Shown: positions 45,083 to 64,000 of the stretch, one piece after another
How positions within the stretch are numbered: the first letter of the stretch is position 1
Layout: each line of letters opens with the position of its first letter
Virus record (IMG/VR): IMGVR_UViG_2700989400_000004
Span: 1-64,000 of that record
Origin: a virus
Lineage: Duplodnaviria > Heunggongvirae > Uroviricota > Caudoviricetes
Length of the DNA: 64,000 nucleotides
Strand: one strand, 5' to 3'
The notes under the pieces: model-generated
Told to the model about the DNA's origin: nothing
What the model saw: the letters and a program-made list of their open reading frames with translations, nothing else
The model's database searches: none
Position numbers and translations under genes: made by a program

Positions 45083-45084
45083 AA

Positions 45085-46215: not shown

Positions 46216-46224
46216 AATCTACCT

Positions 46225-48051: not shown

Positions 48052-48154
48052 CCCCTAAGCGTTGATATATTTCCTCTGCATCCTCCCCGCGCTCAAAGCA
48101 AAAGTTTTCAAATAGCCGCCAGTATTCAGCAAACGCTGATAAATTAGTCATTGT

Positions 48155-48971: not shown

Positions 48972-48975
48972 GATA

Positions 48976-49203
48976 TTAACCCTCGACTACTTGCAGCCCA
49001 CGCCCCTTGTCGCCCACGAAGTCGCCCAAGCTGAACGTGTACGACCACGCCGGATTGATATAATTTTCATCAGCACCGTGAGCAATAAGGTCTTTACCCA
49101 AAATGACGCAGGTCACATCATCAGAGTGAATAACGTCTACCGTTTCACCGACTACGCGTTTTAATGACGGGTATCCGTGATCGTGCAAAAACTTAACCTT
49201 CAT
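48976..49203 (-). CDS. hypothetical protein (N-terminus duplicated at 49385-49452)
   Basis: 75 aa; MKVKFLHDHGYPS start region repeated nearly identically 260 bp upstream. Confidence 0.35.
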   Translation of the reverse strand: MKVKFLHDHGYPSLKRVVGETVDVIHSDDVTCVILGKDLIAHGADENYINPAWSYTFSLGDFVGDKGRGLQVVEG

Positions 49204-49375
49204 TATCCACCCCGTCTTTTTTGATTATTTTTCGAATCCCTTCAAAAATTTCCACGCTTGAGCTATCTATAATCATTTTTACATGTGGGTTATAGCGTTC
49301 CGATAGGTATTTTTGTATGTTTTCAATAGATTTAATAAACATCCGATCTTCATCTTTAGTAAAATTACTGTTCAT
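49193..49375 (-). CDS. hypothetical protein
   Basis: 60 aa island ORF. Confidence 0.3.
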   Translation of the reverse strand: MNSNFTKDEDRMFIKSIENIQKYLSERYNPHVKMIIDSSSVEIFEGIRKIIKKDGVDNEG

Positions 49376-49451
49376 AATTCAATCTCCTAGCGGTCAATGC
49401 TTATTAAAAAATTCAATGATGGGTAGCCGTGATCGTGCAAGAATTTAACTT

Positions 49452-49739
49452 TCATATTTCTTTCTCTTGTAAGACCAACAATACCGCCAGCATTTCCCCG
49501 TCATGTAATGGGTCTGGAATAGCAAAAAATATGTCGCTGTTTCTGTCCGGCACTACAACGCGCATATTTCCTTGTTTGTCTTCATGAACAAACCACGGCT
49601 TTTCGTGTGGCTCAAACATACCAAAAAGCAATTTAAGATCTATTTCTTCGCCCTTCGTGAATAACGATACATCCGTTGTGGCGATAACTAACGCTTTCTT
49701 GTCTGCCATTTTCTTCGCTCTCATTACTCTGTATCCCAT
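49452..49739 (-). CDS. hypothetical protein
   Basis: 95 aa island ORF. Confidence 0.35.
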   Translation of the reverse strand: MGYRVMRAKKMADKKALVIATTDVSLFTKGEEIDLKLLFGMFEPHEKPWFVHEDKQGNMRVVVPDRNSDIFFAIPDPLHDGEMLAVLLVLQEKEI

Positions 49740-49954
49740 CGTTCAATACTGATTAAAAAGTCCCGGATAGCGTGGCGCTCGTCTCGCGTAGGTTTGCGCT
49801 TCCGGTAAATTTTAAAATCAAACCATTCTTTTTCTTGTTCGAAATCCAGATCGTAAGCAAGCGCCTCAATATATCCGCATTCGTGATACTGGTACGCTAC
49901 GCCAGCACGAACAAAAAAGCGGGTTTTATCCCGCTTATGCTCATAGATACGCAT
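49724..49954 (-). CDS. hypothetical protein
   Basis: 76 aa island ORF. Confidence 0.3.
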   Translation of the reverse strand: MRIYEHKRDKTRFFVRAGVAYQYHECGYIEALAYDLDFEQEKEWFDFKIYRKRKPTRDERHAIRDFLISIERWDTE

Positions 49955-49964
49955 ATTTCCCCCG

Positions 49965-50195
49965 CTATGCAGTCGTGTAGCTGTCTACTAACTTCTCATC
50001 CTTCATTCTGGCAAGCTGGCTAATATTCATCGTGTAGCCGCCATCAGAGAAAAGCCACTCCGCCGCCTTGCGACGAAAAGTAGTATCATCATGGTTGCGC
50101 GTCCATGTGGCGATCACCACGCGCTTTCCGTCAGTGGCAAACATAGATAATTCATTATCAACTACGTCGATAGCCTGCCAGATTTTTAGCTCCAT
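49965..50195 (-). CDS. hypothetical protein
   Basis: 76 aa island ORF. Confidence 0.3.
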   Translation of the reverse strand: MELKIWQAIDVVDNELSMFATDGKRVVIATWTRNHDDTTFRRKAAEWLFSDGGYTMNISQLARMKDEKLVDSYTTA

Positions 50196-50551
50196 GATTT
50201 ATCCCCGTAAATTTTGAATAATTCCTGTGCTTCCTGATCTTCGAATAACTTCATATGCAGATCATGCAGGCGTCGCATTGTGCGGAAGCGTGGTCTGAAT
50301 TCTTGACTTCGTTTAATGCATTTACCACCTATTGAGTAAATATGTCCGTATGAATACCATCTGTTACCTACCCAAATTTGATATTCTTCACCATCATAGT
50401 TAATTTTGATTGTAAACTCGTCAACCTCCATTATTAATCCTTTATCGAGGATATCATTTAACATATCATCCCATTCTTTGAGAAATGGCTGTTGATAGAA
50501 ACCGAAAAGTGTATTTGCAGCGTGGCAAAGGTAATCAAGGATTATTTGCAT
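50186..50551 (-). CDS. hypothetical protein
   Basis: 121 aa island ORF. Confidence 0.35.
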   Translation of the reverse strand: MQIILDYLCHAANTLFGFYQQPFLKEWDDMLNDILDKGLIMEVDEFTIKINYDGEEYQIWVGNRWYSYGHIYSIGGKCIKRSQEFRPRFRTMRRLHDLHMKLFEDQEAQELFKIYGDKSWS

Positions 50552-50555
50552 ATTA

Positions 50556-50774
50556 TCACCACATCATATAGTAAACGTTATCATCAGCTAATGCGTCGGC
50601 GTCTTCCTGCGTCATGTGCCGCGCTTCCAGAAAGAAATCATCATCATGCCATTCACTAACAAGCATACGCGCCCATTTACGGCGGCGTCGCTTATTGCGT
50701 CGCAGATCATCAAAAGCCATTAATGCTTTGTCGTATGCCCTTACAAGGCGCTTACGGTTACTTTTCATTTTCAC
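50556..50774 (-). CDS. hypothetical basic protein
   Basis: 72 aa, Arg/Lys-rich. Confidence 0.3.
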   Translation of the reverse strand: MKMKSNRKRLVRAYDKALMAFDDLRRNKRRRRKWARMLVSEWHDDDFFLEARHMTQEDADALADDNVYYMMW

Positions 50775-51069
50775 CTCTCAACATCCAATTTCTGTCACAT
50801 TTAATTGCGAATACCTTAACAGGATCAGGGCCGAATAATGGATGAGTGATAGTTTTTACTTCGTACCCAAAATAAGGAAGGTTAATAATCCTGTGTTTTT
50901 CGTGGTTGGCAGGGTATCCCCATTTAATAATCAGGCGTTCATATTCCCGCCCTTCAAGACGTTTACGCCAATAGTCATTATAAAGCCGGTATTCCTCCAC
51001 CTTCTTTCCAGTCCATATGGCGTGAAAGTATTCACCTTTCAGATTCAAATGTAGGTCTTTACTTGCCAT
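50758..51069 (-). CDS. hypothetical protein
   Basis: 103 aa island ORF. Confidence 0.35.
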   Translation of the reverse strand: MASKDLHLNLKGEYFHAIWTGKKVEEYRLYNDYWRKRLEGREYERLIIKWGYPANHEKHRIINLPYFGYEVKTITHPLFGPDPVKVFAIKCDRNWMLRGENEK

Positions 51070-51331
51070 CGCTATGATCCTGTAAACAGTCGTTATAGCC
51101 TTCTATATATCCGGTTAATCCGGTGTTACTCACTGACCATTCAGCCGTCCGGCGCTTGATGGCCTCGTCCATCGTGATTTCACCTTTGCGATGACATCCG
51201 GCATCAATATAGCGGTTAACAACCGAAGATAGCCGCCCGCGTAGCTGTTGTGTTCCGGCGTAATATCGGGCCGTATCCGCAAGCTCGTTAATCAACTGGC
51301 GGTAAATATGTTCTTTTAATTTAGGCTTCAT
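51059..51331 (-). CDS. hypothetical protein
   Basis: About 90 aa from internal ATG. Confidence 0.3.
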   Translation of the reverse strand: MKPKLKEHIYRQLINELADTARYYAGTQQLRGRLSSVVNRYIDAGCHRKGEITMDEAIKRRTAEWSVSNTGLTGYIEGYNDCLQDHSDGK

Positions 51332-51521
51332 TATCGTCACCCCGCTTGTAAATTTTGACAGGCTTAATAGGGATGGCGGGCAATTCGCCTTCATTTAATG
51401 CGCTTGCCATACCCAATATTAAACGCGCTTCCGCACCAGTGACTTTCTTACACCATGCGCCGCCTTTTTTATCTTGAAATAAGATAACAGCAAACTGATC
51501 GTTTATTTCCAGCTTATCCAT
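51321..51521 (-). CDS. hypothetical small protein immediately downstream of Q
   Basis: 66 aa; may instead be leader of late transcript. Confidence 0.25.
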   Translation of the reverse strand: MDKLEINDQFAVILFQDKKGGAWCKKVTGAEARLILGMASALNEGELPAIPIKPVKIYKRGDDNEA

Positions 51522-52249
51522 TATTCACCCCGTGTAACTCGTTTAATTTCGCTTTCAGCGCGGGCCTCTTCTTTGAATAGCTCAGCTATGGCGTCTTCAT
51601 AGAAAACCCGGTATTTCTTCCACCATGTTGATCGGCTTACCGGAAAAACAAGCTGATTAACCGCCTGCCGGACGAGATCTACAGGGAAACGCGAGTACCC
51701 GCGCCCGCCGCAATGCTGGCACGTTTTGAATACTGGCATTTCCGCCGCTTCGCTGGCTGTTTTATCCGGTACTTCGCCGCGCCCCTTGCACCGCTGGCAA
51801 TGGTTTTTAACGTAGCCTTTGCCGCCGCACCGTGCGCAAATTGTTGATGTGTATTCGCATTCATGGTGAGGTAAAAGCCCGTTACCGCCGCACTTAGGGC
51901 AAACTTTTTCGGTCGCCGCACTCTGGCAATAATCCCGAAACGCGAAAACGGCAACAAGAATAATAAGTCCATTGCGCTGATCCTCGTTTAACTCCATCAC
52001 GTATTCGTAATCTTTTGCCATCGATTTTAAGCGGTCTATAAGCAACGACACGGCTTTATTTTTTTCAGCTTGCGATAGCTCCATCTTTCCCAAAAAAGCG
52101 CTATAACCCAGTGTTACGCGCGATTGCGCCATACCCGCAGCGGTTAGCGCATCCGTTGTATTAAGCGCATCCGGGGACGTGCCCCGGCTTTCATCTGATA
52201 ATCGCGGTGATTTGGGAAAGTGGAATTTCAGAATGGATTCTAAATTCAT
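51521..52249 (-). CDS. late-gene antitermination protein Q (lambda Q family)
   Basis: N-terminal MNLESILKFHFPKSPRLSDE...AAGMAQS closely parallels recalled lambda Q N-terminus; CxxC zinc-binding pairs. Confidence 0.75.
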   Translation of the reverse strand: MNLESILKFHFPKSPRLSDESRGTSPDALNTTDALTAAGMAQSRVTLGYSAFLGKMELSQAEKNKAVSLLIDRLKSMAKDYEYVMELNEDQRNGLIILVAVFAFRDYCQSAATEKVCPKCGGNGLLPHHECEYTSTICARCGGKGYVKNHCQRCKGRGEVPDKTASEAAEMPVFKTCQHCGGRGYSRFPVDLVRQAVNQLVFPVSRSTWWKKYRVFYEDAIAELFKEEARAESEIKRVTRGE

Positions 52250-52464
52250 TATTTGCCCCCGTAACGCGCTGCCAGTCGTTTACGATCAGAAATAGACTGG
52301 ACTAACTTTCTCTCAAGCTCTTTCAGTGCTAGCAATTCGCGCATGTGAAAAGCCTGGATTTGTCGGACCGTCTCTAAATCATGCTCGTCGCGCTGAATAC
52401 CTATTTGCAGATCTTTAATTTCGTTTTTCATTGTCACCCCACATATTAGTCGCGTATTCGTCAA
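52249..52464 (-). CDS. hypothetical small protein
   Basis: 71 aa between RusA and Q. Confidence 0.3.
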   Translation of the reverse strand: MTNTRLICGVTMKNEIKDLQIGIQRDEHDLETVRQIQAFHMRELLALKELERKLVQSISDRKRLAARYGGK

Positions 52465-52834
52465 TATCCGGTAGTAGGTCGCCGCGTTCGCGGATCTTAA
52501 TAAACAAGCGCCCGCCTTTTACCTTCCGGCAGCGGACAATTTTTATTGAGTCGATTTGCCCGTCATCCTTCCAGAATCCGGCATAAGTAAGGCTGTCAAA
52601 AAGGCATTTAGGGATATTGTCCAGATCTCTGATCCGGTTATCCGGCGGCGCGGCATAAATGGCGATTGCCAGTCGGCAAGATAGGTTAATGTTTAAATTT
52701 AATAGCTCGATGATGTCTCTTACTTGTTCCCTGTATTCCTTCCCCACTTTGCTGATATAGTGAAAACCGCGCGAATGTCGGTAATAGCGGTTATTCGACG
52801 GCGGGTAAGGCAGGCTAAAAGAATATTCATTCAT
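52415..52834 (-). CDS. rusA: Holliday junction resolvase RusA
   Basis: SLPYPPSNNRYYRHSRG...RDLDNIPKCLFDSLTYAGFWKDDGQI matches recalled RusA signature. Confidence 0.8.
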   Translation of the reverse strand: MNEYSFSLPYPPSNNRYYRHSRGFHYISKVGKEYREQVRDIIELLNLNINLSCRLAIAIYAAPPDNRIRDLDNIPKCLFDSLTYAGFWKDDGQIDSIKIVRCRKVKGGRLFIKIRERGDLLPDIDEYATNMWGDNEKRN

Positions 52835-53436
52835 GCTGCCTTTCTCCTTAAGGCGTCCAATTTAGCCTGATAGATGTTTATTAGCTCCTTACATTCTGCG
52901 ATCGTCCATTTATGCGTATCATTGTTGTTTTCCAGTGCTACCACCCTTGCGAGGCCAATTTTTCGAATCAGTGCCGGGCGATACCCTCCTATGTTTCCGT
53001 CTAATGTCTGGTTGCAGTGCCTGCATTGTTTATGGCAATTATCCTCGTTAAAGCGAAGGTGTCCTGCGGCGGCAACCGTCCTGTAATGGCCCGCATCCCA
53101 CCCGCATTGCTCACCGTAGTAAGTCCCGCAGGATATACACGGCAAGCGCGCGTCACGTTCGCGGATATAGGCGTTGAATACGTTTTGAACTTGCTTGATC
53201 CAGTAGCTGCGCGGATTTAACTGTTTCCGCTTCCGGTTGCGTTCTTCCCGCTGGCTATCGCGGCGTTTCTTCCGTTCCATCGCCTTCATAGCCTTTTCAC
53301 GGTCGCGGCATAGCTGATCAAACTTCAGTTCTTCCAGACATTCATCGCTGCACCACGTCTGATTGTGATATTTAGGCTCAAAAAAAACGCCGCAGCACTT
53401 GCAACGGCGTCTTATGGGTTTTTTAGGGTTTTGCAT
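52831..53436 (-). CDS. NinG/Rap-like recombination protein
   Basis: Cys-rich N-terminus and HYRTVAAAGHLRFNE...CHKQCRHCN; start at internal ATG. Confidence 0.6.
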   Translation of the reverse strand: MQNPKKPIRRRCKCCGVFFEPKYHNQTWCSDECLEELKFDQLCRDREKAMKAMERKKRRDSQREERNRKRKQLNPRSYWIKQVQNVFNAYIRERDARLPCISCGTYYGEQCGWDAGHYRTVAAAGHLRFNEDNCHKQCRHCNQTLDGNIGGYRPALIRKIGLARVVALENNNDTHKWTIAECKELINIYQAKLDALRRKAA

Positions 53437-53790
53437 AAAATCCACCCCAATTATTTTCGATTTTCGATTTCGTTCGGCTTTGCGGCGGCTCCGGCCCTTA
53501 GCCAATGATCTACGCATTTGTTGCACTCGTTACAGTCTCCTTTGTTTGGGTTACACAAATTGCACATTGCCCGCATTACGCATTCGCGCTCGTAGTCGTC
53601 ATGCCACGCATACCTGTCATCGTTCATAATTTGATCTCCTTCTGTTAGGCGATGTGTTTCCGCATTTCAGCGGGGCCGGATTTTTAAAGAGCATTTCGTT
53701 TGATTGCAGTATACAAAATGGATGCACCTGGACAAAGTAAAAAGCGCCATTATGTGACGCTAATCACACAATGACGCCATTTTGTAAACT

Positions 53791-54555
53791 TTAGTCCGGT
53801 AAAACGCGGTTAAGCGTCGTCCGCGTGATGGCCCGGTCGTTAGCCAGGAATACAGCACGGGCGAAGCCGCGCGGCGTTAGTGAGCGGATCATCTTAGTGC
53901 GCTTCGACTTTCCGCCTAACTTCGCGTGCTGCTTACTGTCTTCCCATTCATCCGGCATTGGTACAGGCCGGAATAGCGGCTGCTTAAATCCATTCCCACA
54001 CCAAATACATGTTTTCTTCGTGTAGGCGTCGCGGGCGGCGATGTATTCCGGGAAAGCGGGATGTTTATCATCTTCCGGCAGGTAGCCACCATAAGCGCAC
54101 GGATTGAAGATAAAATCCGGTTTACGCCATAACGTTGATAGTGCGCCTACCGGATTTTCTACCATCCACGGCACGTTATACATATTCGCCAGTTTTTCTA
54201 CCAGTTTTGCGTTATGCGCCGCCTTCACCTGGAAGTCAGGGTCTTTTTTCCGTTTATCAGCGAACCAGCGAGCGCCTGAAACGGCGAGATTGTCGCATGG
54301 AGGAAAGCCCAGGATAATGTCAGGATCTGGATATACAGACAATTCAGGGGAGAACATTACCAGGAAATGGCTATCAATCCAGACATTGACATATTCAATA
54401 TTGGGATGAATTATTTTTACCCCGTCATAATCCCCGTGATTAGCGCCGTCATAGTTGAAGCAATAACATTTATAACCAGCGTCCGCCCAATCTTTAACGG
54501 CGTACCCGCTGCCGTCATATAGCGACCACACCACCCAATTTCTAAGCCCGCTCAT
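53791..54555 (-). CDS. putative DNA (cytosine-5)-methyltransferase-like protein
   Basis: Motif I-like SLYDGSGYA, motif IV-like GFPPCDNLAVSG, motif VI-like MVENPVG; short (254 aa). Confidence 0.5.
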   Translation of the reverse strand: MSGLRNWVVWSLYDGSGYAVKDWADAGYKCYCFNYDGANHGDYDGVKIIHPNIEYVNVWIDSHFLVMFSPELSVYPDPDIILGFPPCDNLAVSGARWFADKRKKDPDFQVKAAHNAKLVEKLANMYNVPWMVENPVGALSTLWRKPDFIFNPCAYGGYLPEDDKHPAFPEYIAARDAYTKKTCIWCGNGFKQPLFRPVPMPDEWEDSKQHAKLGGKSKRTKMIRSLTPRGFARAVFLANDRAITRTTLNRVLPD

Positions 54556-55055
54556 TTTCTACCCTCAAACGTGAAATAGCGGCGCATGATGATAGTAATC
54601 ACCGTTACCGCTGCCATTTTTGAGATAAATTGCATAGCTGATATTTCCGGCATAAATGCCATAAACGATAGCGTTGGGAAAATTAACGCATCACCTATGG
54701 CGGACGCTATATTTGCAGGCCATCGTTTTGAATCAAAGTCACCAGGCAAAACCCGGTAAACGCCGCCAGAAATAAGCGCACCGGAAACAACCGCGACAAA
54801 TGACGCGATCGCCACCATTCCGGCATCGTAATTTATCAGCACAGTGATTGCGCCAGCGGCGGCGCATGTTGTAGCCGACCATTTCAGGCCGCCGTCATAT
54901 AACAGGAAGTCACGGATCATCATATTGACACACACAGCGGCTACCGTGGTGATCGGAATTACCCACGGGCCGCAATGGTTAACAATAAGATTGATGATCA
55001 CGAAAACGGCGACATAAACGCAGGCTAATAACCTGTCAATTGTCACCCTTTCCAT
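54552..55055 (-). CDS. integral membrane protein (possible VUT/YhhQ-like fold, weak)
   Basis: About 167 aa, multiple hydrophobic helices. Confidence 0.4.
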   Translation of the reverse strand: MERVTIDRLLACVYVAVFVIINLIVNHCGPWVIPITTVAAVCVNMMIRDFLLYDGGLKWSATTCAAAGAITVLINYDAGMVAIASFVAVVSGALISGGVYRVLPGDFDSKRWPANIASAIGDALIFPTLSFMAFMPEISAMQFISKMAAVTVITIIMRRYFTFEGRK

Positions 55056-55557
55056 TTTTATGATACCCCGCCGCGCGTAATAGTGATTCGTTGTCAAACT
55101 TCACATCAAGCCGATTAATAATCTCACCACCGTTAAACATCACAGTTGGGATTGTCCCTGGTGCAATAGATGGCTCTGGTCCAGCAAGATCAGCAAAAGT
55201 TTTCTTCAATCCACCGATAGGGAGATCAAAAACGCCCTGTTTTTTCTTTTGTTCTTCCTCCCGCTCCGTTAATATTTGCTCCGCTTTTAGCGCGTTGTAG
55301 CTAATCAAATCAATTAGCGTGTCTGTCGGATCGCTATTATTGCTCAAAATAGCTTCTAATCGCGCCTCCTTGAGACAAATTAGTAGATCCCATACATCAA
55401 GCGGGGTTAAATTTGCCCCCTTCTTAGCGTTGTAAATAGCGGCTATTTTTGGCGCTGATTTTTCCTCTTTTTTGTCGTATCCGTTTTGCTTACCTCTTTG
55501 CTCTATGGTTTCCGCCGCAAGTCTCAATAAATCTGTTGCCTTAGTCATTATTTGCAC
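55036..55557 (-). CDS. hypothetical protein
   Basis: 173 aa between Dam and membrane protein. Confidence 0.4.
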   Translation of the reverse strand: MQIMTKATDLLRLAAETIEQRGKQNGYDKKEEKSAPKIAAIYNAKKGANLTPLDVWDLLICLKEARLEAILSNNSDPTDTLIDLISYNALKAEQILTEREEEQKKKQGVFDLPIGGLKKTFADLAGPEPSIAPGTIPTVMFNGGEIINRLDVKFDNESLLRAAGYHKNGKGDN

Positions 55558-56029
55558 CTCTTGCGTATAGCTCTTTACGTGTTATCTGCGTGAAAATACA
55601 TTCATGTTTGCACCGTGGATGCCAGATCAAGAACAAGCTCCCTTTATTGTTTCCGCTTGCTGGCTTACCCGTCGCAGCATTAATAAACGCCAGCCGCCCG
55701 CGCGTGATTAAGCGACATTCGCTTGCCGTCTCCAGGCCGTTCATAAACCAGTTAACAGAGATATCAGCGGGCAACAACATTACACAGCCAATATGATTTC
55801 GGTGATGTTCCATCGCTGCCTTATCTACGAATGGCCCCGGATTCGAATATGGCGGATTAAGCCAGACATATTCACCAGGCATTGCTACCGCTCCCCACGG
55901 ATAATGGAGTGTGTCCATCTCTTCGGTTATATATCGCGGAACTAATGCGTTTGCCTTGTTTGCCGCCACATCCGCGACGAATTCGAATTCACGGTCCATT
56001 CCTCTAAAACGGGTTTTGGCGTTTGCCAT
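55541..56029 (-). CDS. phage-type DNA N-6-adenine methyltransferase (Dam family)
   Basis: VWLNPPYS catalytic motif and GCVMLLPADISVNWF...GRLAF. Confidence 0.7.
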   Translation of the reverse strand: MANAKTRFRGMDREFEFVADVAANKANALVPRYITEEMDTLHYPWGAVAMPGEYVWLNPPYSNPGPFVDKAAMEHHRNHIGCVMLLPADISVNWFMNGLETASECRLITRGRLAFINAATGKPASGNNKGSLFLIWHPRCKHECIFTQITRKELYARGANND

Positions 56030-56088
56030 AAGTCCTTTATTTCTTTTGGCGTATGGCTTCCGCCGTAATCATTTTTCATTACGCCCCC

Positions 56089-56436
56089 TTAGAAATAATC
56101 CTGATCTGCTCCCCAGCGGTTATTCAGATATCCCACCAACCACACAAAACGCTCAATACTGATTAGCGGGGCGACCTTGCGATAATGCTTATCTAATATC
56201 AGCCGCGTGGCTTTATCGCTATATCCGTTTCTTTCTACCTCTGCTTTGCAGGCAGAAAGCGCCGCGCGTGCGGCAGTTTTTACGGCGTTGAATTGCGGCT
56301 CTGACAGGTTGAATAAAGCCATATAATCACCACGGATCATCTCAATAAGTCGAGGCCACCCAGAAAAAACCCACGAAAACACTAAAAGCGAATAGCACGC
56401 GTATACCCAAAAGCAATTCCGCCCACGACTGAACAT
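56089..56436 (-). CDS. hypothetical protein
   Basis: ORF in early leftward operon; start uncertain. Confidence 0.3.
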   Translation of the reverse strand: MFSRGRNCFWVYACYSLLVFSWVFSGWPRLIEMIRGDYMALFNLSEPQFNAVKTAARAALSACKAEVERNGYSDKATRLILDKHYRKVAPLISIERFVWLVGYLNNRWGADQDYF

Positions 56437-56563
56437 CAGGAAGCGACCATGTGATAAACATTGCGCCGACGATCAGGACGGCAATAACAACGGCGCACGC
56501 CAGGAAAAATAAAAGCGCGGCTGAAAGCCACGCCCCAAAAAAGTGAAACACTTCTCTTAACAT
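56342..56563 (-). CDS. hypothetical membrane protein
   Basis: 73 aa, two hydrophobic helices. Confidence 0.3.
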   Translation of the reverse strand: MLREVFHFFGAWLSAALLFFLACAVVIAVLIVGAMFITWSLPDVQSWAELLLGIRVLFAFSVFVGFFWVASTY

Positions 56564-56767
56564 TTAAACGTCCTCAATTACCCCGCCTTTCACGCGTTCT
56601 TTAATATCCCATACGTGAGGCTTACACATTTCTTGATAATAGTGATCCGGCCTGCTGCCGAAATACCATTTGCCATCCATATAAAAATAAACGCCCGAAA
56701 AATTACCAGGTGCGGCCTTTGTTGCTGCTTCTGGAATTTTCCATTCTCTGTAGTGTTTAAACTTCAT
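56564..56767 (-). CDS. hypothetical protein
   Basis: 67 aa. Confidence 0.3.
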   Translation of the reverse strand: MKFKHYREWKIPEAATKAAPGNFSGVYFYMDGKWYFGSRPDHYYQEMCKPHVWDIKERVKGGVIEDV

Positions 56768-56960
56768 ACATTAACACCGCCTTTTTAAGTTCGCTTAATT
56801 CAAAGTGCATCAAGCGAAAATGCTGTACACCGCCAACAATACTGACCTGATAAATATCACCAACGCAGTTATAGTAATAACAACCCAATTGACCGATTCC
56901 GGCTAATTTAGCGTTATCCGGTATCATGTATTCGCCAACCTTTTTCATATTCAGCCTCAC
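56757..56960 (-). CDS. hypothetical protein
   Basis: 67 aa. Confidence 0.3.
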   Translation of the reverse strand: MRLNMKKVGEYMIPDNAKLAGIGQLGCYYYNCVGDIYQVSIVGGVQHFRLMHFELSELKKAVLMYEV

Positions 56961-57058
56961 AAATATTTTTCAATCACCCAGCGGAGAAACAAACCAACCG
57001 CCACGATCCCCCAGCAACAAACCATGAAGTAAAACTCGGCCTCATTCGCACTCATTCC

Positions 57059-57545
57059 TTACCTCCCGTGGTTTTCATGATACCCGTACTCGATTTCAGC
57101 TTTACGCCTCGCTTCGATCGCTTCATCTATGCTATCTGAGTAGCATAGATATTTTTTCTTTCCGTCAACGGTAATATAAGATCTCCATTTCTGAGTTAAT
57201 TTATCCCAATAAACACCCGTGCATCCAGAAGTGTTATTTTTCTGCTTAGCTCTATTCTTTGCGTTTTCCTGTCTCGTCACTATTCGAAGGTTATCAAGCC
57301 TATTATTAAGGCGATTATGTCTATATGGTCTATTTGATAGCCTTCCGGGATTGGGCCGTTGTGCATCTCCCATATTATCCTGTGAACGCAATACCTTTTC
57401 CCGCAAAACATAAACCCCTGTACCCACCCTCATACAGAGTACTCCCTGCTACGTCTCCGGCTTTAACCCTGAAACCAGTAGGTTTCTTCCAAATTAGATT
57501 GACTCCGTCGTAATAAAACCACTCTCGCCAGTCAATAGCGTCCAT
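57059..57545 (-). pseudogene. HNH homing endonuclease (HNH plus AP2-like domain) disrupted by two frameshifts
   Basis: Frame 1 MDAIDW...GYRGLCFAGK; frame 3 RYCVHRIIWEMHNGPIPEGYQIDHID; frame 2 NRLNNRLDNLRIVTRQEN...GVYWDK...EEAIEARRKAEIEYG; shifts near GGAAAAGG and GACATAATC. Confidence 0.6.
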
Positions 57546-57635
57546 TGTGTTTTCCCTCTTCCCAAGCGAAATACCCGACAAAACCAACCAGAACAATCAA
57601 CCAGCAAGCCAGGATTAAATCAATCAGCCACATGA

Positions 57636-57875
57636 TTAAGCCTCCATAACCGCGTAATCGAAGCGCCCTAAATACATCTCGATGCCGATCATCTCGACGC
57701 CCTGGACGTCCGCGCCCCATACAGTTACGTGATAAGCGTCCTCCCGCCATTGTTCATGGCTTAGCACTTCGTTTGCTGGATATTTCCGCCCCGCGACGTA
57801 AGCGCCCGGACCTACGCCACCTTCTACGCAATACAGCATGATCTGGTTTTCCATATCGCACCTCGTTAATAGCAA
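57636..57875 (-). CDS. hypothetical protein
   Basis: 79 aa ORF; start uncertain. Confidence 0.3.
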   Translation of the reverse strand: MLLTRCDMENQIMLYCVEGGVGPGAYVAGRKYPANEVLSHEQWREDAYHVTVWGADVQGVEMIGIEMYLGRFDYAVMEA

Positions 57876-58048
57876 ACTGCGTACATACAGATCCCGTTGT
57901 TAAAGGCTTTGATGATCATGTCGATGACCATGTAAACGAGCATTACAGCCGCCGCTGGGACAAGGATCGCGAATAGTCCGCCTAACGTGCGCTCAATAAT
58001 GAAATGCGGGTTTACTTTGCTTTTGTGGTTACGTTCAAAGTTTGTCAT
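57866..58048 (-). CDS. hypothetical small membrane protein
   Basis: 60 aa, hydrophobic. Confidence 0.3.
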   Translation of the reverse strand: MTNFERNHKSKVNPHFIIERTLGGLFAILVPAAAVMLVYMVIDMIIKAFNNGICMYAVCY

Positions 58049-58147
58049 CTTCCCGCCCTCCGTGCTGTATACCTTTCGACTTCAGTTTACAAAACGGATA
58101 CAGCGGGACAATACAAAATGTATATTTATGTGATCGGTATCACGCGA

Positions 58148-58768
58148 TTAATGCAGTACACGTTTTTCCGGGTGAGGCATTGGCTGTGCACGTTTCCGCG
58201 CTTCATTCAGCACTGACGCCACCGCCCGGACGCCAAAATCATTAGCCCGCATATCATTGCCGACCATCTCGCCATAAATAAGCGGCATAAATTGCCTTGC
58301 GTTATCCTCGATGTGTCCATTTTCAACCGCTTTCTGAAGTACGCCAGCCTCAAGGATATCGCGCATCAGTTCACGGATTGTATATAATGAAGCACTACCC
58401 ATCGCCCCTTCGCCCAGCGGGACAATCACCGCGCTACCATATGCAAGCGGATCCAGTTCTTCCGGTACTGGTACACGTCCAAAATCTTCTTCCATGCGTT
58501 TTACGAAAGTAAGGCAGAAGACGTAACGCGCTACCGATGTTTTCTCTTCCGCATTCAAAGATACGTAATCGCGCATTGACGCATCCATTACAAGATCAGC
58601 AATTTGTAGCGCCAGGTTTAAATCCCCGTCATACACGCCCGCGTCCATATCTTTAATGACTTCGTGGTAGTTCTTTGTTTCCACTTCATGAAAACATGCG
58701 TCCTCTGTGTAGCGAGTGATTAACATGCCTTCGCTGCCAAGTGAATAAGCTGTTTTGATGTCGTTCAT
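58148..58768 (-). CDS. hypothetical protein
   Basis: About 206 aa from internal ATG. Confidence 0.4.
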   Translation of the reverse strand: MNDIKTAYSLGSEGMLITRYTEDACFHEVETKNYHEVIKDMDAGVYDGDLNLALQIADLVMDASMRDYVSLNAEEKTSVARYVFCLTFVKRMEEDFGRVPVPEELDPLAYGSAVIVPLGEGAMGSASLYTIRELMRDILEAGVLQKAVENGHIEDNARQFMPLIYGEMVGNDMRANDFGVRAVASVLNEARKRAQPMPHPEKRVLH

Positions 58769-58779
58769 GATATTTATCC

Positions 58780-59112
58780 TTATAACGGGTGATGCCATCG
58801 CATTTCAGTTTCTGAATTAAACGGGATACCTTCGCTTGAAAGGAATAAATCACGCTCCCGTTTCAGTTCTTCCGGGCTTATTTCTATTTCATCAATCTGA
58901 CCGAACGATCCCGGCATCATTCTTTTTAAATCAGATAGCGGACGCATAAGGCCGCAACCGCGTAACAGCATATCGACCGCGAATTGTCTACGTCCGGCGG
59001 CGTCATTAAAGCGCCGTGCCCAGGGCACAACCACGATCCGGCGTTCGAATTCGATAAATAGTGATAGCTTGTTTGTTTCGCTATCATATGCTTTATGGAA
59101 TTTAATTTTCAT
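58780..59112 (-). CDS. hypothetical protein
   Basis: 110 aa. Confidence 0.35.
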   Translation of the reverse strand: MKIKFHKAYDSETNKLSLFIEFERRIVVVPWARRFNDAAGRRQFAVDMLLRGCGLMRPLSDLKRMMPGSFGQIDEIEISPEELKRERDLFLSSEGIPFNSETEMRWHHPL

Positions 59113-59293
59113 TTAACACCTCGACGTATTGCTCAAGATGCCATTTACCCACCTCGTCGTCTTCTTCATCAAATAATGTTACTTGACCCCCTGGCCCGAA
59201 AGAAAAGGCAGCGACAATAAATTTATAGCCATACCACGTGCGGATCTTTTCGCCGCCTTTCAGGTCTTTAACTTTCACTAATTTTATAGCCAT
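59102..59293 (-). CDS. hypothetical protein
   Basis: 63 aa. Confidence 0.3.
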   Translation of the reverse strand: MAIKLVKVKDLKGGEKIRTWYGYKFIVAAFSFGPGGQVTLFDEEDDEVGKWHLEQYVEVLNEN

Positions 59294-59559
59294 ACGCCAA
59301 ACATCCCATTCAATCCGGCGAACAACTGCCGCCAGTGGTCTTCAACATAAGCCCGGAAAGGCTTAACGCGAACATTGCGGGCCTTCAGCGTGATACTGTC
59401 AAAATAACGCGGCTCGATCAGCGTACCATCAAGGTATTGAACGAGGATCGGGCGCTCAAAGTCGCTACATGTTTTATTCAGCACGACCAGACCGGGGTCA
59501 CTACGATATGCGGGCAAAACAACGAGATCACCCGCCTTTGCATCCCATAACATCATCAC
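59284..59559 (-). CDS. hypothetical protein
   Basis: 91 aa. Confidence 0.35.
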   Translation of the reverse strand: MMMLWDAKAGDLVVLPAYRSDPGLVVLNKTCSDFERPILVQYLDGTLIEPRYFDSITLKARNVRVKPFRAYVEDHWRQLFAGLNGMFGVWL

Positions 59560-59675
59560 ATCACCCCTTTACCAATAAGGCCAATCACCGCCGCCAGTGC
59601 GCCACAAAAGACAACCGTAAACAGGAAGCAAATAACGCAAAACGCGACCGTTACAATATCCTTACTGACTTTCAT
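59559..59675 (-). CDS. small hydrophobic peptide (38 aa)
   Basis: MKVSKDIVTVAFCVICFLFTVVFCGALAAVIGLIGKGVM. Confidence 0.3.
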
Positions 59676-59683
59676 AATTAGCC

Positions 59684-59797
59684 TCACATATTAGTAATCA
59701 GTTTGATGATCGCCACCGTAATATAAAGCGATACGCTGAGATACAGCACCGCCACCGCTACCGCCGCCAGCAATGCGGCAATTTTTGCGAGATTCAT
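59684..59797 (-). CDS. small hydrophobic peptide (37 aa)
   Basis: MNLAKIAALLAAVAVAVLYLSVSLYITVAIIKLITNM with GGAGGG Shine-Dalgarno. Confidence 0.35.
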   Translation of the reverse strand: MNLAKIAALLAAVAVAVLYLSVSLYITVAIIKLITNM

Positions 59798-60246
59798 TTG
59801 CCACCCTCCGCTATGAATTTATCAAGCCATTTATTATTCGCCAGGCGTTCGGCATCTTCGCCAAATGATTTACGGTCGCTTAATTCCTGGCGCGTTGGAA
59901 AATTCCAGTGGTCATGCCAACCCGCAGACGTTTCGAATTCATATAAGCCGCCGCTAAAAGTAACAAGCTCGTCAGCACCGTCGGGTATTTCTTTATCGAC
60001 TTCTTTATCTTCGATCATGATTGACACCTCATTAATCGTTAATAACCTGGCCCATACGCCCGCGATATTTGCGCATACGTGGATCGACATATTCAGGCCA
60101 ATGCATATCCTGTTTTCTTTGCAGTGGGTAAAAACTTGCCTGCCAGTTGTCGAACCATATTTGCTTTGCGTACAGGTCACTAAATCTTTTCGCCATCCGT
60201 TCAGCCGAACTACCAGCAATAAAAAACCCGCGATCGATTTGATCAC
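59794..60246 (-). CDS. hypothetical protein
   Basis: ORF; start uncertain. Confidence 0.3.
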   Translation of the reverse strand: MIKSIAGFLLLVVRLNGWRKDLVTCTQSKYGSTTGRQVFTHCKENRICIGLNMSIHVCANIAGVWARLLTINEVSIMIEDKEVDKEIPDGADELVTFSGGLYEFETSAGWHDHWNFPTRQELSDRKSFGEDAERLANNKWLDKFIAEGGK

Positions 60247-60376
60247 GGGCTTCTTTCAATACTTGCTCTTTTGTTCGTGGTGGCGGCGGCGGTTTTAAAT
60301 AATCGCCCATCACTAACCTATCGATTCTAAAACGGGATATCTGGATCGAAATCATCCGGCGGCGGATAGTTTCCAT
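60032..60376 (-). CDS. hypothetical protein
   Basis: ORF with polyproline stretch; start uncertain. Confidence 0.3.
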   Translation of the reverse strand: METIRRRMISIQISRFRIDRLVMGDYLKPPPPPRTKEQVLKEARDQIDRGFFIAGSSAERMAKRFSDLYAKQIWFDNWQASFYPLQRKQDMHWPEYVDPRMRKYRGRMGQVIND

Positions 60377-60740
60377 TATTGTTTTGCGGTTGCGCTTTCT
60401 GCTGCTGGCCTTGCTGCTGGCCCTGTTGGTTAACGTTCATGAATTCAAACTCACTAACCACCACTTCTACCGCAGTCCCCTTCGTGCCGTCATTCCGGTC
60501 ATATTGCCGAACATCCAGGCGACCGCTTACAACAATTTTTCCACCCTTGCGGATATGTGGCGCTAATTTTTCCGCACGCTCACCAAATACCAGACAAGTG
60601 ATCCACATTACCCGCTTATTATCACCGTAGCCATTCGTTACAGCTAACGGGAAGTTACCGATCGCTTTACCGTTTTGCGTGTAGCGGACTTCCATGTCAT
60701 TTCCGATATTCCCGCCCAGCGTAATTGAATTTAAACTCAT
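60327..60740 (-). CDS. ssb: single-stranded DNA-binding protein
   Basis: OB-fold N-terminal region, Gln/Gly-rich linker, acidic C-terminal DDFDPDIPF tail. Confidence 0.85.
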   Translation of the reverse strand: MSLNSITLGGNIGNDMEVRYTQNGKAIGNFPLAVTNGYGDNKRVMWITCLVFGERAEKLAPHIRKGGKIVVSGRLDVRQYDRNDGTKGTAVEVVVSEFEFMNVNQQGQQQGQQQKAQPQNNNGNYPPPDDFDPDIPF

Positions 60741-61381
60741 TAACCCATCTCCCCGTTAAGCTCTGATTTTCTGATCTGGTATACGTCGCTTGCTTTCTGT
60801 CGTTGCTCTGAATTTTCAGGTAATAACTTCCAGCATTTAGCAAAAATATCTTTAAGCGCTTTTTCGTCCGGCGCTTTCGATGCTGCATCACAGAAACGCG
60901 CTAATACTTCATCAGGATTTGGCGGCGCTTTCGGCTGCTGTGGTTGTTGTTTTGGCGGGTTTTTCTGCTGTCGCGGCTGTTGTCCTGTCTGCTTAGCGTA
61001 AGCATCAGTATCTAAATCTTTCGCGTCATCAATACAGAACAAGCCGTTTAAAGCATATTTTCGCGCGTAACTTGATGTCGCCCCTGTTAACTGGCCCGCC
61101 GTCATGCCCTTTTGCTCTTTTTCCTCCCTGGCGAACGCAGTAGCTGAGATTGAATCTTCACCGTCGCTTAGTGTCGCCGTAGCTTTCACATAATAGCGAT
61201 CACCAATCAGGACAATTTCATCACTAACCATTAATGTGACGTTTTGAAGCAGTGGCTTGACAGCCTCTAAAATATCCTCAGCCGACCTATAGCTATAGCC
61301 ACCGAATTTATTGTATTGCCCTTTTGGCGCGTTCAGTGTTTGCTGAATCGTCCACAGTTTTTTGTGTAACTCTGTTTTCAC
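60740..61381 (-). CDS. putative single-strand annealing protein (Erf-like)
   Basis: 213 aa; position next to ssb; Gln/Pro-rich C-terminal linker. Confidence 0.5.
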   Translation of the reverse strand: MKTELHKKLWTIQQTLNAPKGQYNKFGGYSYRSAEDILEAVKPLLQNVTLMVSDEIVLIGDRYYVKATATLSDGEDSISATAFAREEKEQKGMTAGQLTGATSSYARKYALNGLFCIDDAKDLDTDAYAKQTGQQPRQQKNPPKQQPQQPKAPPNPDEVLARFCDAASKAPDEKALKDIFAKCWKLLPENSEQRQKASDVYQIRKSELNGEMG

Positions 61382-61530
61382 TATTTGATCTCCTTCGCTG
61401 TTAACACTACGTATAAGGCTTTATTCGCGGCGCTCCACATTTCGGCATCGTGAAGCATTTCCGCTACTGCCAGTTTGAATTGAAGCGCCTGAATAACCAT
61501 AATGTCACCTCCGATTGTATACATTTTGTA

Positions 61531-61821
61531 TTAATGGTATCGAACTTTATCTAACGGGATCTCCCAAAGCTGGCGCGGCTGCGTTGCGTGGAAGTAGTTG
61601 CCGCTTTCATTTTCCTGATACCATTTTGTCGCGCCCTTGCGACGTTCTTTAACGCTATTTGATTTGCATCTTTCCTCATTTGCAAAGCGAATAGCTTTTT
61701 CCACTTTATCAATCTTCTGTATGTGCGGGCCTTCGTCTTGTTCGGCTGCCCGCTTCATCCGGCGGCGCTTCCGTGCATTTAATTTGCTCTCACAGTTACC
61801 GTAAATGATCTTCGCATTCAT
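61531..61821 (-). CDS. putative N-like antitermination protein (arginine-rich motif)
   Basis: NARKRRRMKRAAEQ near N-terminus resembles N-protein arginine-rich motifs; first gene downstream of repressor. Confidence 0.4.
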   Translation of the reverse strand: MNAKIIYGNCESKLNARKRRRMKRAAEQDEGPHIQKIDKVEKAIRFANEERCKSNSVKERRKGATKWYQENESGNYFHATQPRQLWEIPLDKVRYH

Positions 61822-62266
61822 AATCTTTTCTCCTTAGTTAAAATCATGTTTGCTACATTTCAGTAGCGACCAGATTGTTAAAGAGAATGGCTTAACATCG
61901 TTCAACTAATCCCGCAATCATCGCCGTTTCCGGTGTGACACCACTCAATCCAAGTGATCTGACTCGTCGCCTTGCGTGCGGTTTCGTGGGGGATGTAACG
62001 CTTTAAACACCCCATGCGCCTTGTTATCAGTGCCGCTTTCGGTCCCACATCGGGGAGTTACTCCACGGTTGACAAGGTGTTAAGCCTGATTTTTAAAGTG
62101 CCTGGAAGGTGTTTTTGTTTCCTGTCTCCTTCCTTTGACTCGCAATATACGCCCTGTGATATGTCGAGTCAATCCATTTTGTATACTTTTTTAAAATATT
62201 TTCTATCTCATTGATATTTAAATGATAAAACCCGTTCTCGGTTTACATTTTGGTGCTTTCTGGGCA

Positions 62267-62289
62267 AAGAAAAGCCGCCATCCGGCGGC
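62267..62289 (-). terminator. rho-independent terminator after repressor gene
   Basis: GCCGCC atcc GGCGGC with T-tract on minus strand. Confidence 0.55.
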
Positions 62290-62295
62290 TAATGT

Positions 62296-62943
62296 TTATG
62301 GCAGATTTACGATCTTCGCGTCCACCACCACGCCAATAATTTTTGATTCAGGATTTAGCGGGATTGGTGGATACAACGGATTAAGCGAACGTAAAAGCCT
62401 TTGACCTCCATCAATAATCAACTGTTTAAACGTCGGCGTTTGCCCTTCCTCCAATTGGGCTATAACCAGTTTGCCGTCAATAGCTGGCGCGTGTGGATCA
62501 ACAAGTATCATCGTTCCCGCCGGGATGCTCAATCCTTGCGGCGCGTTCATCGATTCACCTTTTGCAACCAGCCAATAACTATCATCCGAACAAATCACGC
62601 TAGTGTTAACGTGCGGTAATGATGCGCGTTTTGCTTCTTCCATGTAGTTTCCTGCGTCTTTCCAGTCAATCACCGGATAACGCCCTACGTCGAGCGGTGG
62701 CGCTCCCGGCAGTGTATTAGAAAGTGAATCATCAATAACCATCCCATCATGTGTGACCGTAAACTGCCGACGACCAAGCGCCCGCATGATCCGCGCAATA
62801 TCTTCCAGGTTAGGCTCACGACGACCATTTAGCCAGTGTGATAAGCCGCCCTTTGTGATCCCCATGAGATCCGCCAATGAATCCTGGCTCATACCTTGCG
62901 CCCGCATGAGTTGTTTAGCTAAGTCATACCATTTTGTTTTCAT
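62296..62943 (-). CDS. cI-like repressor (HTH plus S24 LexA-like peptidase domain)
   Basis: N-terminal HTH; C-terminal GESM (Ser) and K dyad typical of LexA/cI autocleavage domain. Confidence 0.8.
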   Translation of the reverse strand: MKTKWYDLAKQLMRAQGMSQDSLADLMGITKGGLSHWLNGRREPNLEDIARIMRALGRRQFTVTHDGMVIDDSLSNTLPGAPPLDVGRYPVIDWKDAGNYMEEAKRASLPHVNTSVICSDDSYWLVAKGESMNAPQGLSIPAGTMILVDPHAPAIDGKLVIAQLEEGQTPTFKQLIIDGGQRLLRSLNPLYPPIPLNPESKIIGVVVDAKIVNLP

Positions 62944-63028
62944 GTCGCTACCCTATCGCCCTAAAAAGTTTGATGCAAGTCACAAAATGTATTTTTCAAG
63001 TCTTGACCTAAAAACGCCATTCTGTAAA

Positions 63029-63067
63029 CTTGCAGACAAGGTAAAGCCAGACTTGCAAGGATGCAAG
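63029..63067. promoter_or_regulatory. operator-like repeats in divergent immunity promoter region
   Basis: ACTTGCAGACAAGG and CTTGCA agga TGCAAG palindrome between repressor and rightward genes. Confidence 0.4.
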
Positions 63068-63250
63068 AAAAAAGATAAGGGAATAGCACAAAAAGGCGCA
63101 TACCTTAAAAGCTCTTTAAAAACCCGGTGTCGCTGCGAAGCGAAAAACAAATATCACGCAACGGCGGGATCTGTTGAGCGGTCAATCACTGCTATCTAAT
63201 GCTAATGGGATACCCGCCCGCGCGTTCATTTTAACCATAGGAGAAAAATC

Positions 63251-63506
63251 AATGAGTATGCACATGATGACTGAAGCCTGGAAAGTGGAACTTAACAGCC
63301 CGATTCAAAAACTTGTCTTAATGGCTTTGGCTGAAAAGGCGGATAACCGCCGCCACGCCAGGGTGTCACACCAAGAAATCGCAAAAATGTGTGAACTTCC
63401 TGTAAATACGGTAATGGTTGCTATCGACGGATTAACGCACAAAGGATTTATTTGTAACCCTTACCCGGTAAATGACGTTTACCTGGTAATGCTGCCGGAG
63501 GAATGA
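63251..63506 (+). CDS. small DNA-binding regulator (Cro/CII-position)
   Basis: 85 aa with AGGAGA Shine-Dalgarno; first gene of rightward operon. Confidence 0.45.
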
Positions 63507-63509
63507 TCC

Positions 63510-64000
63510 ATGAAGTGGTTTAAGCATGATAGCGATGCGAACCGCGATGAAAAACTTCAAAACGTTTTGCTCGATTATGGTCTGGAAGGATACGGTCTTT
63601 ATTGGTACTGCCTCGAACTAATCACTTATGACGTAGATCAGCATAATCTCACTTTCGACCTTCGACATGACGCGAGAATCATCGCGCGAAATGTCGGTTC
63701 GACTGAAAAACGTGTAGAAGAAATGATGAAATACTTCATCGAAATTGGTTTATTTGAATGTTCTCAAGGCCATATAACATGCTTAAAGTTATTGAAAAGG
63801 CTGGACCAATCAATGACTTCTAAGAGTGGTTACAGAGCTGCTATAAATGCAGCAAAAGAACAATTCAAATTAGAAAAGTTAATCAACCCAACGCCAAAAG
63901 GTCATGATAGGGTCATGACCGGGTCATGGCAGGGTCATGAATTAGAATTAGAAGAAGAATTAGAAGAAGAAATAGAAAAAGATATATACACTTCGTGTAT
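63510..64000 (+). CDS. replication initiation/replisome organizer protein (partial, continues past window)
   Basis: GGAGG Shine-Dalgarno; N-terminal MKWFKHDSDANRDEKL typical of phage replisome-organizer N-domains; contains iterons. Confidence 0.6.
   Translation, partial: MKWFKHDSDANRDEKLQNVLLDYGLEGYGLYWYCLELITYDVDQHNLTFDLRHDARIIARNVGSTEKRVEEMMKYFIEIGLFECSQGHITCLKLLKRLDQSMTSKSGYRAAINAAKEQFKLEKLINPTPKGHDRVMTGSWQGHELELEEELEEEIEKDIYTSC
63900..63940 (+). repeat. four direct GGTCATG(A) iterons at about 11-bp spacing inside replication gene (putative ori)
   Basis: Copies at 63900, 63911, 63922 and 63933. Confidence 0.55.

Follow-up and report, generated by a model that had tools for sequence, protein, structure and literature searches.

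The DNA analysed here (the window) is the 64,000-nucleotide stretch at positions 1 to 64,000 of the IMG/VR virus record IMGVR_UViG_2700989400_000004. Some 45.7 kb of it very probably represent the left part of a prophage that is integrated at abgT and belongs to the mEpimmI (mEp021-like) group of Escherichia coli siphoviruses, and with the same likelihood the module order that had been flagged as unusual is the normal architecture of this group. In the preliminary description of the window, the repressor, an N-like gene and the recombination, nin, Q, lysis and structural genes were said to run leftward, with replication diverging to the right. The map of open reading frames (ORFs) and the domain searches bear out every gene named there (Table 1). 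The order is correct, but it is not new, as it has already been published as the standard layout of the mEpimmI group. The architecture, the repressor and the N-like protein with its three nut sites were published for the group in 2023-2025, and the layout in itself has little discovery value. Its value for annotation is that of a further mosaic member, at abgT, of a gut-prevalent E. coli prophage family.

Relatives and insertion site

Seven phage records, those of mEp021, mEp010, mEp013, mEp044, mEp515, mEp554 and MagusPhagus, match positions 44000-64000 with 83-88% identity and 67-77% coverage. The archetype of the mEpimmI group is mEp021 (accession MH706966). A direct BLAST comparison of mEp021 with the window gives collinear blocks at 22115-63246, of 72-92% identity, with few segments replaced, and the GenBank annotation of mEp021 has the same gene order and strand pattern. 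The comparison with known phage genomes, which had been proposed as a check, thus finds the window collinear with mEp021 and unlike the lambda order. Forty of the 43 IMG/VR loci with a homologue of the repressor place the N-like, Erf and SSB genes downstream of the repressor gene, in its own orientation, and the replication genes on the other strand, upstream of it; the remaining three are truncated on one side, so that one arm is not covered. At least 80% of the segment 51521-64000 is present in 34 of 5,426 complete E. coli genomes, at 85-93% identity.

The left junction of the prophage coincides with the 3' end of abgT. Positions 1-18332 are 99.8% identical to E. coli strain 442/2, and the match stops at this point. 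The attL core (~TATCCGCTTATCTTTT) is also present at the abgT fragment that marks the right end (attR) of the prophage of UMNK88, an mEpimmI member at abgT. Phages of the group insert into ydaM, abgT or mppA via a matching tyrosine integrase (PMC11893012), and the abgT site is shared with the members that have integrase type II. In the window, the prophage sequence ends at position 64000; the integrase would fall past this end, and the rest of the rightward arm is seen only in relatives. In UMNK88, which has the same replication module as the window, the arm consists of genes for an HTH protein, a 356-amino-acid Lin1244 initiator, Ant, a 372-amino-acid protein, a DnaB-type helicase and NinB, and of small ORFs. 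It is closed by a convergent tyrosine integrase gene, which is followed by the abgT fragment and then by ogt.

These comparisons describe the prophage as one more mosaic member of the mEpimmI group. It has in common with the sequenced phages the collinear genome, the strand layout, the type of repressor, a Gp17-type N-like protein, the three nut positions, and the Q, nin, lysis and structural modules. It differs from them as a mosaic variant with several segments replaced, and its replication module is of the UMNK88 type, not of the mEp021 type.

The immunity repressor

The protein encoded at 62296-62943 is 92% identical over 198 residues to Rep021, a proven immunity repressor, plasmid expression of which protected cells against infection by six mEpimmI phages and not against lambda (PMC11893012). 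It is 89-100% identical to its 43 IMG/VR homologues, and its best match among the solved structures is lambda CI (3BDN, E 1e-20). This homology identifies 62296-62943 as the gene of the immunity repressor, and the operon layout is therefore not conventional. The preliminary description had made its reading depend on this assignment, which the comparison with Rep021 upholds.

The layout could be explained away as an isolated inversion in this genome, or as an error of assembly. The same order recurs, however, in seven independently sequenced phages, in 34 complete E. coli chromosomes and in 40 IMG/VR loci (three more being truncated), and an origin of this kind is therefore excluded for all practical purposes. 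Hardly more credible is the proposal that 62296-62943 encodes an accessory protein, for example a LexA/UmuD-like one, that the true switch lies at another place, and that the operons follow conventional logic. The HTH_3 and Peptidase_S24 domains alone are indeed no proof of an immunity function. The proposal is nevertheless at odds with the 92% identity to Rep021, whose immunity is directed against mEpimmI phages and not lambda (PMC11893012), with lambda CI as the closest solved structure and with the placement of the gene between divergent promoter-like sites and nut sites. Moreover, an ORF check and a Pfam search of the early-left ORFs revealed neither Cro nor a second HTH repressor in the vicinity.

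On alignment, the repressor of the window is a rare allele with a predicted Ala-Gly cleavage site. Ala97-Gly98 (codons 62650-62655, minus strand) aligns with Ala111-Gly112 of lambda CI in the alignment to 3BDN, the surrounding stretch being YPVIDWKDAGNY in the window and YPVFSHVQAGMF in lambda CI, the cleavage of which is stimulated by RecA. The same position is occupied by Val-Val in mEp021, from which the window differs in this respect, and by Ala-Val in UMNK88. Among the 43 IMG/VR relatives it is Thr-Val in 29, Ala-Val and Ala-Ala in four each, and Val-Val, Val-Ala and Ala-Gly in two each. The poor UV induction of the mEpimmI group has been ascribed to an absent cleavage site (PMC11893012). 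The prophage of the window may be SOS-inducible, unlike most of the group.

Distant homologues of the repressor (L046-L048, 37-38% identity) were examined for the layout beyond the mEpimmI group. An extension of the layout to L046 (37% identity) was ruled out. This locus has a conventional cI/cro/replication region, in which a 72-amino-acid HTH_3 gene occupies the Cro position.

The N-like antiterminator and the nut sites

The N-like protein of the window (61531-61821) is 72% identical to Gp17 of mEp021. Arginines 17, 19, 20 and 24 of Gp17 are conserved in the mEpimmI group (PMC11893012), and R17, R19, R20, R21 and R24 are all present in the translation of the window gene. The match to Pfam N_peptide is weak and below the cut-off. 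In the phage collection, homologues of Gp17 occur in the seven mEpimmI records only.

Three nut sites are found in the window, at the positions published for mEp021. In mEp021, nutL is adjacent to the repressor gene, nutR1 precedes gp17, and nutR2 stands just ahead of the nin genes (PMC11893012). The boxA of all three sites is GCTCTTTAA(A/C)AA, close to the boxA of E. coli rrn, and a short hairpin follows 8-10 nucleotides downstream, with the boxB loop GCGA at nutL and U-GAAA-U at nutR1 and nutR2. The nutL site is nearly invariant in 42 relatives. The boxB stem of nutR1 exists among the relatives in the versions GCCGC/GCGGC, GCUAC/GUAGC and UGCAC/GUGCA; these changes are fully compensatory and thus support a functional hairpin. 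The window N-like allele has its own nutR1 boxB stem, which sets it apart from the mEpimmI phages. The nutR1 loops track the N-like allele: U-GAAA-U accompanies the window allele (loci L003 and L004) and UGGAAGU the common allele, which is ~70% identical.

The components of lambda N-type antitermination, an arginine-rich protein, boxA and a GNRA-like boxB, are all present in the sequence; the binding and the dependence on Nus factors are predicted. The mEpimmI group depends on host Nus factors (PMC11893012). The same report gives antitermination by Gp17 at nutL, nutR1 and nutR2, and the terminators t1, t2 and t5, as demonstrated.

Promoter-like site, leader and late region of the leftward array

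The leftward promoter-like site is located just beyond the terminator of the repressor gene, and its hexamers TTGACT and TATATT are invariant in six divergent relatives. The leader downstream folds better than shuffled sequences (z = -2.6) and contains an insert, the ends of which are ~18-nucleotide imperfect inverted sequences (GGCTTAACACCTTGTCAAC / GTTGAACGATGTTAAGCC); boxA-like sequences flank the insert. The insert is present in mEp021 and in most relatives and is missing from 10 of 44, in which nutR1 follows the promoter after ~50 nucleotides. A scan of 44000-64000 against Rfam gave no matches at E <= 1. By its appearance, the segment is either an inserted element or a structured leader that is optional.

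At the distal end of the early region, Q is separated by ~4 kb from the block at 47406-47480 (47406-51521), and ~20 small ORFs lie between Q and the lysis cassette on the ORF map. The strong terminator of this block, found in the scan, stands directly before the ribosome-binding site of the holin gene and corresponds to TERM_5/t5 of mEp021, which is listed as experimentally demonstrated (PMC11893012). The ~85 bp before the holin gene are shared by the window, mEp021 and UMNK88, and this conservation persists where the DNA further upstream is unrelated. The block is a candidate late promoter with a terminator that would be overridden by Q. A second good terminator, at 49936-49917, is conserved in mEp021.

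The rightward arm and the replication module

At the rightward promoter-like site, 41 of 43 relatives retain the TTGA..-TAAACT arrangement. The first gene downstream encodes a protein of 84 amino acids, which matches the region of residues 1-67 in seven PHROG replication-initiation families (the best being PHROG 4617, E 7e-17). The protein is 33% identical to gp14 of mEp021, and the adjacent promoter, operator and nutL DNA is nearly identical in the two genomes. It is also 36% identical to a stretch inside the gp13 initiator of mEp021, a few residues from the N-terminus of gp13. The matches to initiator families and the divergence from gp14 beside constant operator DNA therefore assign the 84-amino-acid protein to the replication module. 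The 'small regulator' that the preliminary description had placed at the start of the rightward operon is, by these matches, a replication-initiator DNA-binding domain. A role of the protein as Cro was considered and rejected, since its matches are to initiator N-termini and since it changes along with the replication module, next to an operator region that does not vary.

No Cro-like gene was found: the HTH_36 gene is the first ORF of any kind downstream of the rightward promoter in an ORF check, and Pfam detected no HTH domain in ten early-left ORFs. A functional equivalent of Cro may still be present in a non-HTH form. The separate 84-amino-acid HTH_36 gene is absent from three relatives (L003, L014 and L022); L003 has an identical repressor and a different initiator.

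The next gene had been described as a replisome-organizer gene carrying GGTCATG iterons, and this holds. Four copies, starting at 63900, 63911, 63922 and 63933, are arranged with an exact 11-bp period inside the Lin1244_N gene. In the whole window GGTCATG occurs 16 times against 6.4 expected, and none of 100 shuffles reaches 16. The gene product is 99% identical to the 356-amino-acid protein of UMNK88, where four iterons likewise have 11-bp spacing and the DnaB-type helicase is encoded further downstream. At the same place mEp021 has another initiator N-terminal half and other repeats (GGTTGCTCTCTGCCACTACC). The N-terminal half of the initiator and the internal repeats change together, and the C-terminal half is 84-92% identical. 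A putative iteron origin inside the initiator gene is the design of lambda O/ori. The replication module appears to be swappable beside a constant immunity region (window 63252-64000; L001 9601-10860; L003 ~4587-5693).

Comparison with lambda and P22

The map reads like that of lambda with the early segment from exo to P flipped. In both, a CI-like repressor with an S24 domain has divergent early promoters on its two sides, N-type boxA/boxB antitermination is combined with Q-type late antitermination, nin-type genes precede Q, the origin iterons and an AT-rich stretch lie inside the initiator gene, and the tail tip is of the J type. The lambda-type order, int-xis-recombination-N-cI / cro-cII-replication-nin-Q-lysis-structural, is not found in the window, in agreement with the preliminary description. 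Here N, recombination, nin, Q and the late genes are on one arm and in one direction, and replication (with the integrase in relatives) is on the other. The first gene of the divergent arm, which is Cro in lambdoid phages, has an initiator-type HTH_36 domain instead, and neither Cro nor cII was found next to the repressor in the window. The mEpimmI phages and the window have three nut sites where lambda has two, and recombination is of the Erf/SSB type in contrast to Exo/Bet. The terminator that Q presumably overrides is ~4 kb from the Q gene, whereas the late promoter of lambda directly follows Q.

In P22, the repressor-proximal leftward operon contains an N-like antiterminator and then an Erf-type recombinase, the same order as in the window. 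The replication genes, nin, the Q-like gene 23 and the late genes of P22 follow cro rightward, as they do in lambda, and in this P22 differs from the window.

The preliminary description had derived a different timing of the late genes from the layout, for example by N-dependent read-through into Q. Q of lambda also depends on N-mediated read-through, and different timing therefore does not follow from the layout. The read-through itself has been published for mEp021, in which Gp17 acts at nutR1 and at nutR2 (PMC11893012), and all three nut sites occur in the window. The window truly departs from lambda in the arm from which Q is fed, here the one with N, in having a third nut site, in the distance of ~4 kb from Q to its presumed target, and in that Cro and cII are apparently absent. 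Phages of the mEpimmI group form no viable recombinants with lambda (PMC11893012). Cascades of N and then Q would work in the order of a flipped early region, in which replication occupies the other arm, uncoupled from them, and a recognisable Cro is missing.

Proposed course of transcription

The gene content, order and strands, the nut, terminator and promoter-like sequences and their conservation suggest the following mechanism, in which the activity of the promoters and the late promoter with its Q-utilisation (qut) site are predicted. In the lysogen, the early promoters would be silenced by the repressor, by homology with the mEp021 experiments. The promoter past the repressor terminator would drive one long minus-strand array, from the N-like gene through the tail, in the order N-like, Erf/SSB, accessory genes and methylases, NinG/RusA, Q, ~20 small ORFs, lysis, terminase, head and tail. 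The divergent promoter would drive the replication arm, consisting of the protein with the origin-binding domain and of the initiator with its internal iterons. After derepression, the N-like protein would load together with host Nus factors at nutR1 and nutR2 on the leftward side and at nutL on the rightward side. The N-modified RNA polymerase would pass the intervening terminators, so that Q could be made, and Q would let transcription pass the pre-holin terminator into the lysis and structural genes.

Several points weigh against this mechanism. Transcription of the prophage is deduced from its sequence and from homology with mEp021, and the details of the nut experiments are second-hand, being taken from PMC11893012. 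The N-like allele of the window is only ~70% identical to all seven sequenced phage alleles, a difference from the mEpimmI phages. Compared with shuffled sequences, the nut hairpins show no clear gain in stability (z = 0.29, -0.34 and -1.98), and boxA is only marginally enriched in the whole window (27 against 16.2 expected, with one of 100 shuffles reaching 27); the nut sites are therefore assigned by their position, conservation and stem covariation. As no Cro-like gene was found, the switch cannot simply copy that of lambda. Finally, the promoter-like sites at 58111-58084 and 53735-53708 inside the array suggest more than one transcription unit.

It is possible, if rather unlikely, that the leftward array consists of several units, each with its own promoter and forming a relay, and is not one N-dependent read-through operon. 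The two internal sites would then start new transcripts, nutR2 would load the N-like protein onto dedicated nin-Q transcripts, and the late genes would use their own promoter before the holin gene. The sequence TTGTCC-16-TATACT is placed 8-15 nucleotides upstream of nutR2 and right after a terminator with a 16-bp stem, and it is conserved in mEp021; a look-alike, TTGTCC-16-TAAACT, is present at 58111-58084. The internal sites share with the rightward promoter the sequence CCATT(T/C)TGTAWAC over the -10, and a relay would account for the third nut site of the group (PMC11893012). These sites are, however, consensus matches only. The promoter scan gave no more hits than shuffled sequences (21 against 23.2 expected), the 58111 site scores 8/12, under the scan threshold, and the published model puts nutR2 in the same operon (rightward there, leftward here; PMC11893012). 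A single N-dependent read-through operon remains the preferred reading.

A recurrent 13-nucleotide element

The motif TACAAAATG occurs nine times in the window against 1.0 expected, always between genes (at 28928, 28998, 32895, 32922, 53712, 53778, 58112, 61522 and 62175). Variants are found at 20609, 20642, 62244, 62982, 63018 and 58086. In mEp021 there are 10 copies of the motif, most of them intergenic and mostly at matching spots. The longer form of the motif is GTWTACAAAATGG, and the 13-nucleotide element CCATTTTGTAWAC is in places a palindrome, ATACAAAATGTAT. In 42 of 43 relatives the element is directly adjacent to the -35 of the leftward promoter; at the rightward promoter-like site it overlaps the -10, with an exact copy in 26 relatives. 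The sequence CCATT(T/C)TGTAWAC covers both this -10 and the internal TTGTCC-16-TAWACT sites (58111-58084 and 53735-53708). Copies of the element also stand beside the terminator that precedes nutR2, and two copies in inverted orientation lie upstream of the tape-measure gene.

The motif was considered as a simple promoter -10 and rejected, since most copies are without a -35 at the right distance. We know of no convincing match between the element and the consensus sites of the host factors DnaA, IHF, LexA, TyrR and FNR, with which it was compared. The motif may be an operator-like site. It is a doubtful proposal that a Cro-less switch would control the whole genome through a network in which CCATTTTGTAWAC/ATACAAAATGTAT serves as operator and is bound by the repressor or by another protein. 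If such a network existed, nin and Q would be fed by their own repressor-controlled promoter, paired with nutR2, and the timing of late expression would be unlike that of lambda. The rare Ala-Gly allele of the repressor, the promoter-associated element and the swappable initiator with its iterons are testable leads for specialists.

Table 1. Features of the prophage and of the neighbouring element in the window, in order of position
Feature	Position	Strand	Basis or remark
ProQ/FinO-like protein	4441-4998		second element
DUF927 protein	5458-7590		second element
AntA-like protein	10012-10812		second element
Tyrosine integrase with Arm-DNA-binding domain	11417-12667		second element
Left prophage junction, attL core ~TATCCGCTTATCTTTT	18316-18332	.	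3' end of abgT
Tail tip/host-specificity protein J	20779-24960	-	Pfam Phage_Tail_Tip, FNIII-A_GpJ, Ig_J, Phage-tail_3; collinear with mEp021 gp79
Tape measure protein	29969-32899	-	Pfam TMP_3, E 1e-59
Portal	40708-42111	-	Pfam Phage_portal_3
Large terminase	42168-43652	-	Pfam Terminase_6C, Sf6_terminase, listed for terminase/portal block 40708-44134
Small terminase	43649-44134	-	within Pfam-identified block 40708-44134
Rz-like	46225-46707	-	lysis cassette 46225-47440; Pfam Phage_lysis
Lysozyme	46683-47174	-	Pfam Phage_lysozyme
Holin	47171-47440, real start probably near 47383	-	Pfam Phage_holin_2_3
Candidate late promoter/Q-utilisation block: TTGTAT-17-TAAAAT, TAACAAT element, terminator 47424-47406	47406-47480	-	promoter and qut roles predicted
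Q-type late antiterminator	51521-52249	-	Pfam Antiterm PF03589, E 4e-31; PHROG 127, E 5e-78
RusA	52415-52834	-	Pfam RusA
NinG	52831-53526	-	Pfam NinG
NinF-like	53451-53627	-	label from position relative to mEp021 NinF/NinG/resolvase annotation only
nutR2: boxA GCTCTTTAAAAA 53692-53681, boxB CCGC-UGAAAU-GCGG 53673-53660	53660-53692	-	exact boxA match, fold; same element in mEp021
Promoter-like TTGTCC-16-TATACT	53735-53708	-	scan; between terminator and nutR2; hexamers kept in mEp021; activity predicted
Strong terminator, 16-bp stem	53778-53743	-	scan; just upstream of nutR2
Two DNA methyltransferases, among accessory early genes 53791-56029	53791-54555, 55541-56029	-	PHROG 757, PHROG 111; mEp021 gp33, gp30 annotations
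Promoter-like TTGTCC-16-TAAACT	58111-58084	-	read from sequence; 8/12, below scan threshold
SSB	60327-60740	-	Pfam SSB, E 2e-24
Erf	60740-61381	-	Pfam ERF, E 1e-40
N-like antiterminator, 96 amino acids, Gp17 homologue	61531-61821	-	PHROG 271 'anti-termination protein N-like', E 6e-8; motif ARKRRRMKR
nutR1: boxA TCTCTTTAACAA 61886-61875, boxB GCUAC-UGAAAU-GUAGC 61867-61852	61852-61886	-	boxA match, fold
Optional ~200-nucleotide leader insert, inverted ends GGCTTAACA...TGTTAAGCC, 37-amino-acid ORF (gp16 equivalent)	61889-62112	-	comparison of relatives
Early leftward promoter-like site TTGACT-17-TATATT, lambda pL equivalent	62144-62172	-	best promoter match in region, 10/12
Strong terminator after repressor gene, t1 equivalent	62273-62290	-	scan; identical in mEp021, annotated TERM_1
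CI-like immunity repressor, 215 amino acids	62296-62943	-	Pfam HTH_3 and Peptidase_S24
Early rightward promoter-like site TTGACC-16-TAAACT, lambda pR equivalent	63003-63030	+	scan
nutL: boxA GCTCTTTAAAAA 63111-63122, boxB UCGCU-GCGA-AGCGA 63130-63143	63111-63143	+	boxA match, fold
HTH_36 protein, 84 amino acids, replication-initiator-type DNA-binding domain	63252-63506	+	Pfam HTH_36
Replication initiator/replisome organiser (Lin1244_N), truncated by window end	63510-64000	+	Pfam Lin1244_N, E 1e-11
Putative origin in initiator gene: GGTCATG x4 (63900-63939), then GAA/AT-rich repeat (63939-63980)	63900-63980	+	repeat search

Structural region and neighbouring element

Plus-strand ORFs are present in the tail-gene region at ~27000-34000, for example at 33186-33923. 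The matching tail region of mEp021 contains the opposite-strand genes gp63, gp65-68 and gp71-74, which include a putative antirepressor. In the structural region, the statement that all genes of this arm run leftward may thus hold only approximately.

A separate integrative element is located beside abgR, at window positions 1-12700. The first 4 kb of the window have a low G+C content (41-43%). At least 80% of the 18.4-kb left flank is found in only six of the 5,426 complete E. coli genomes.

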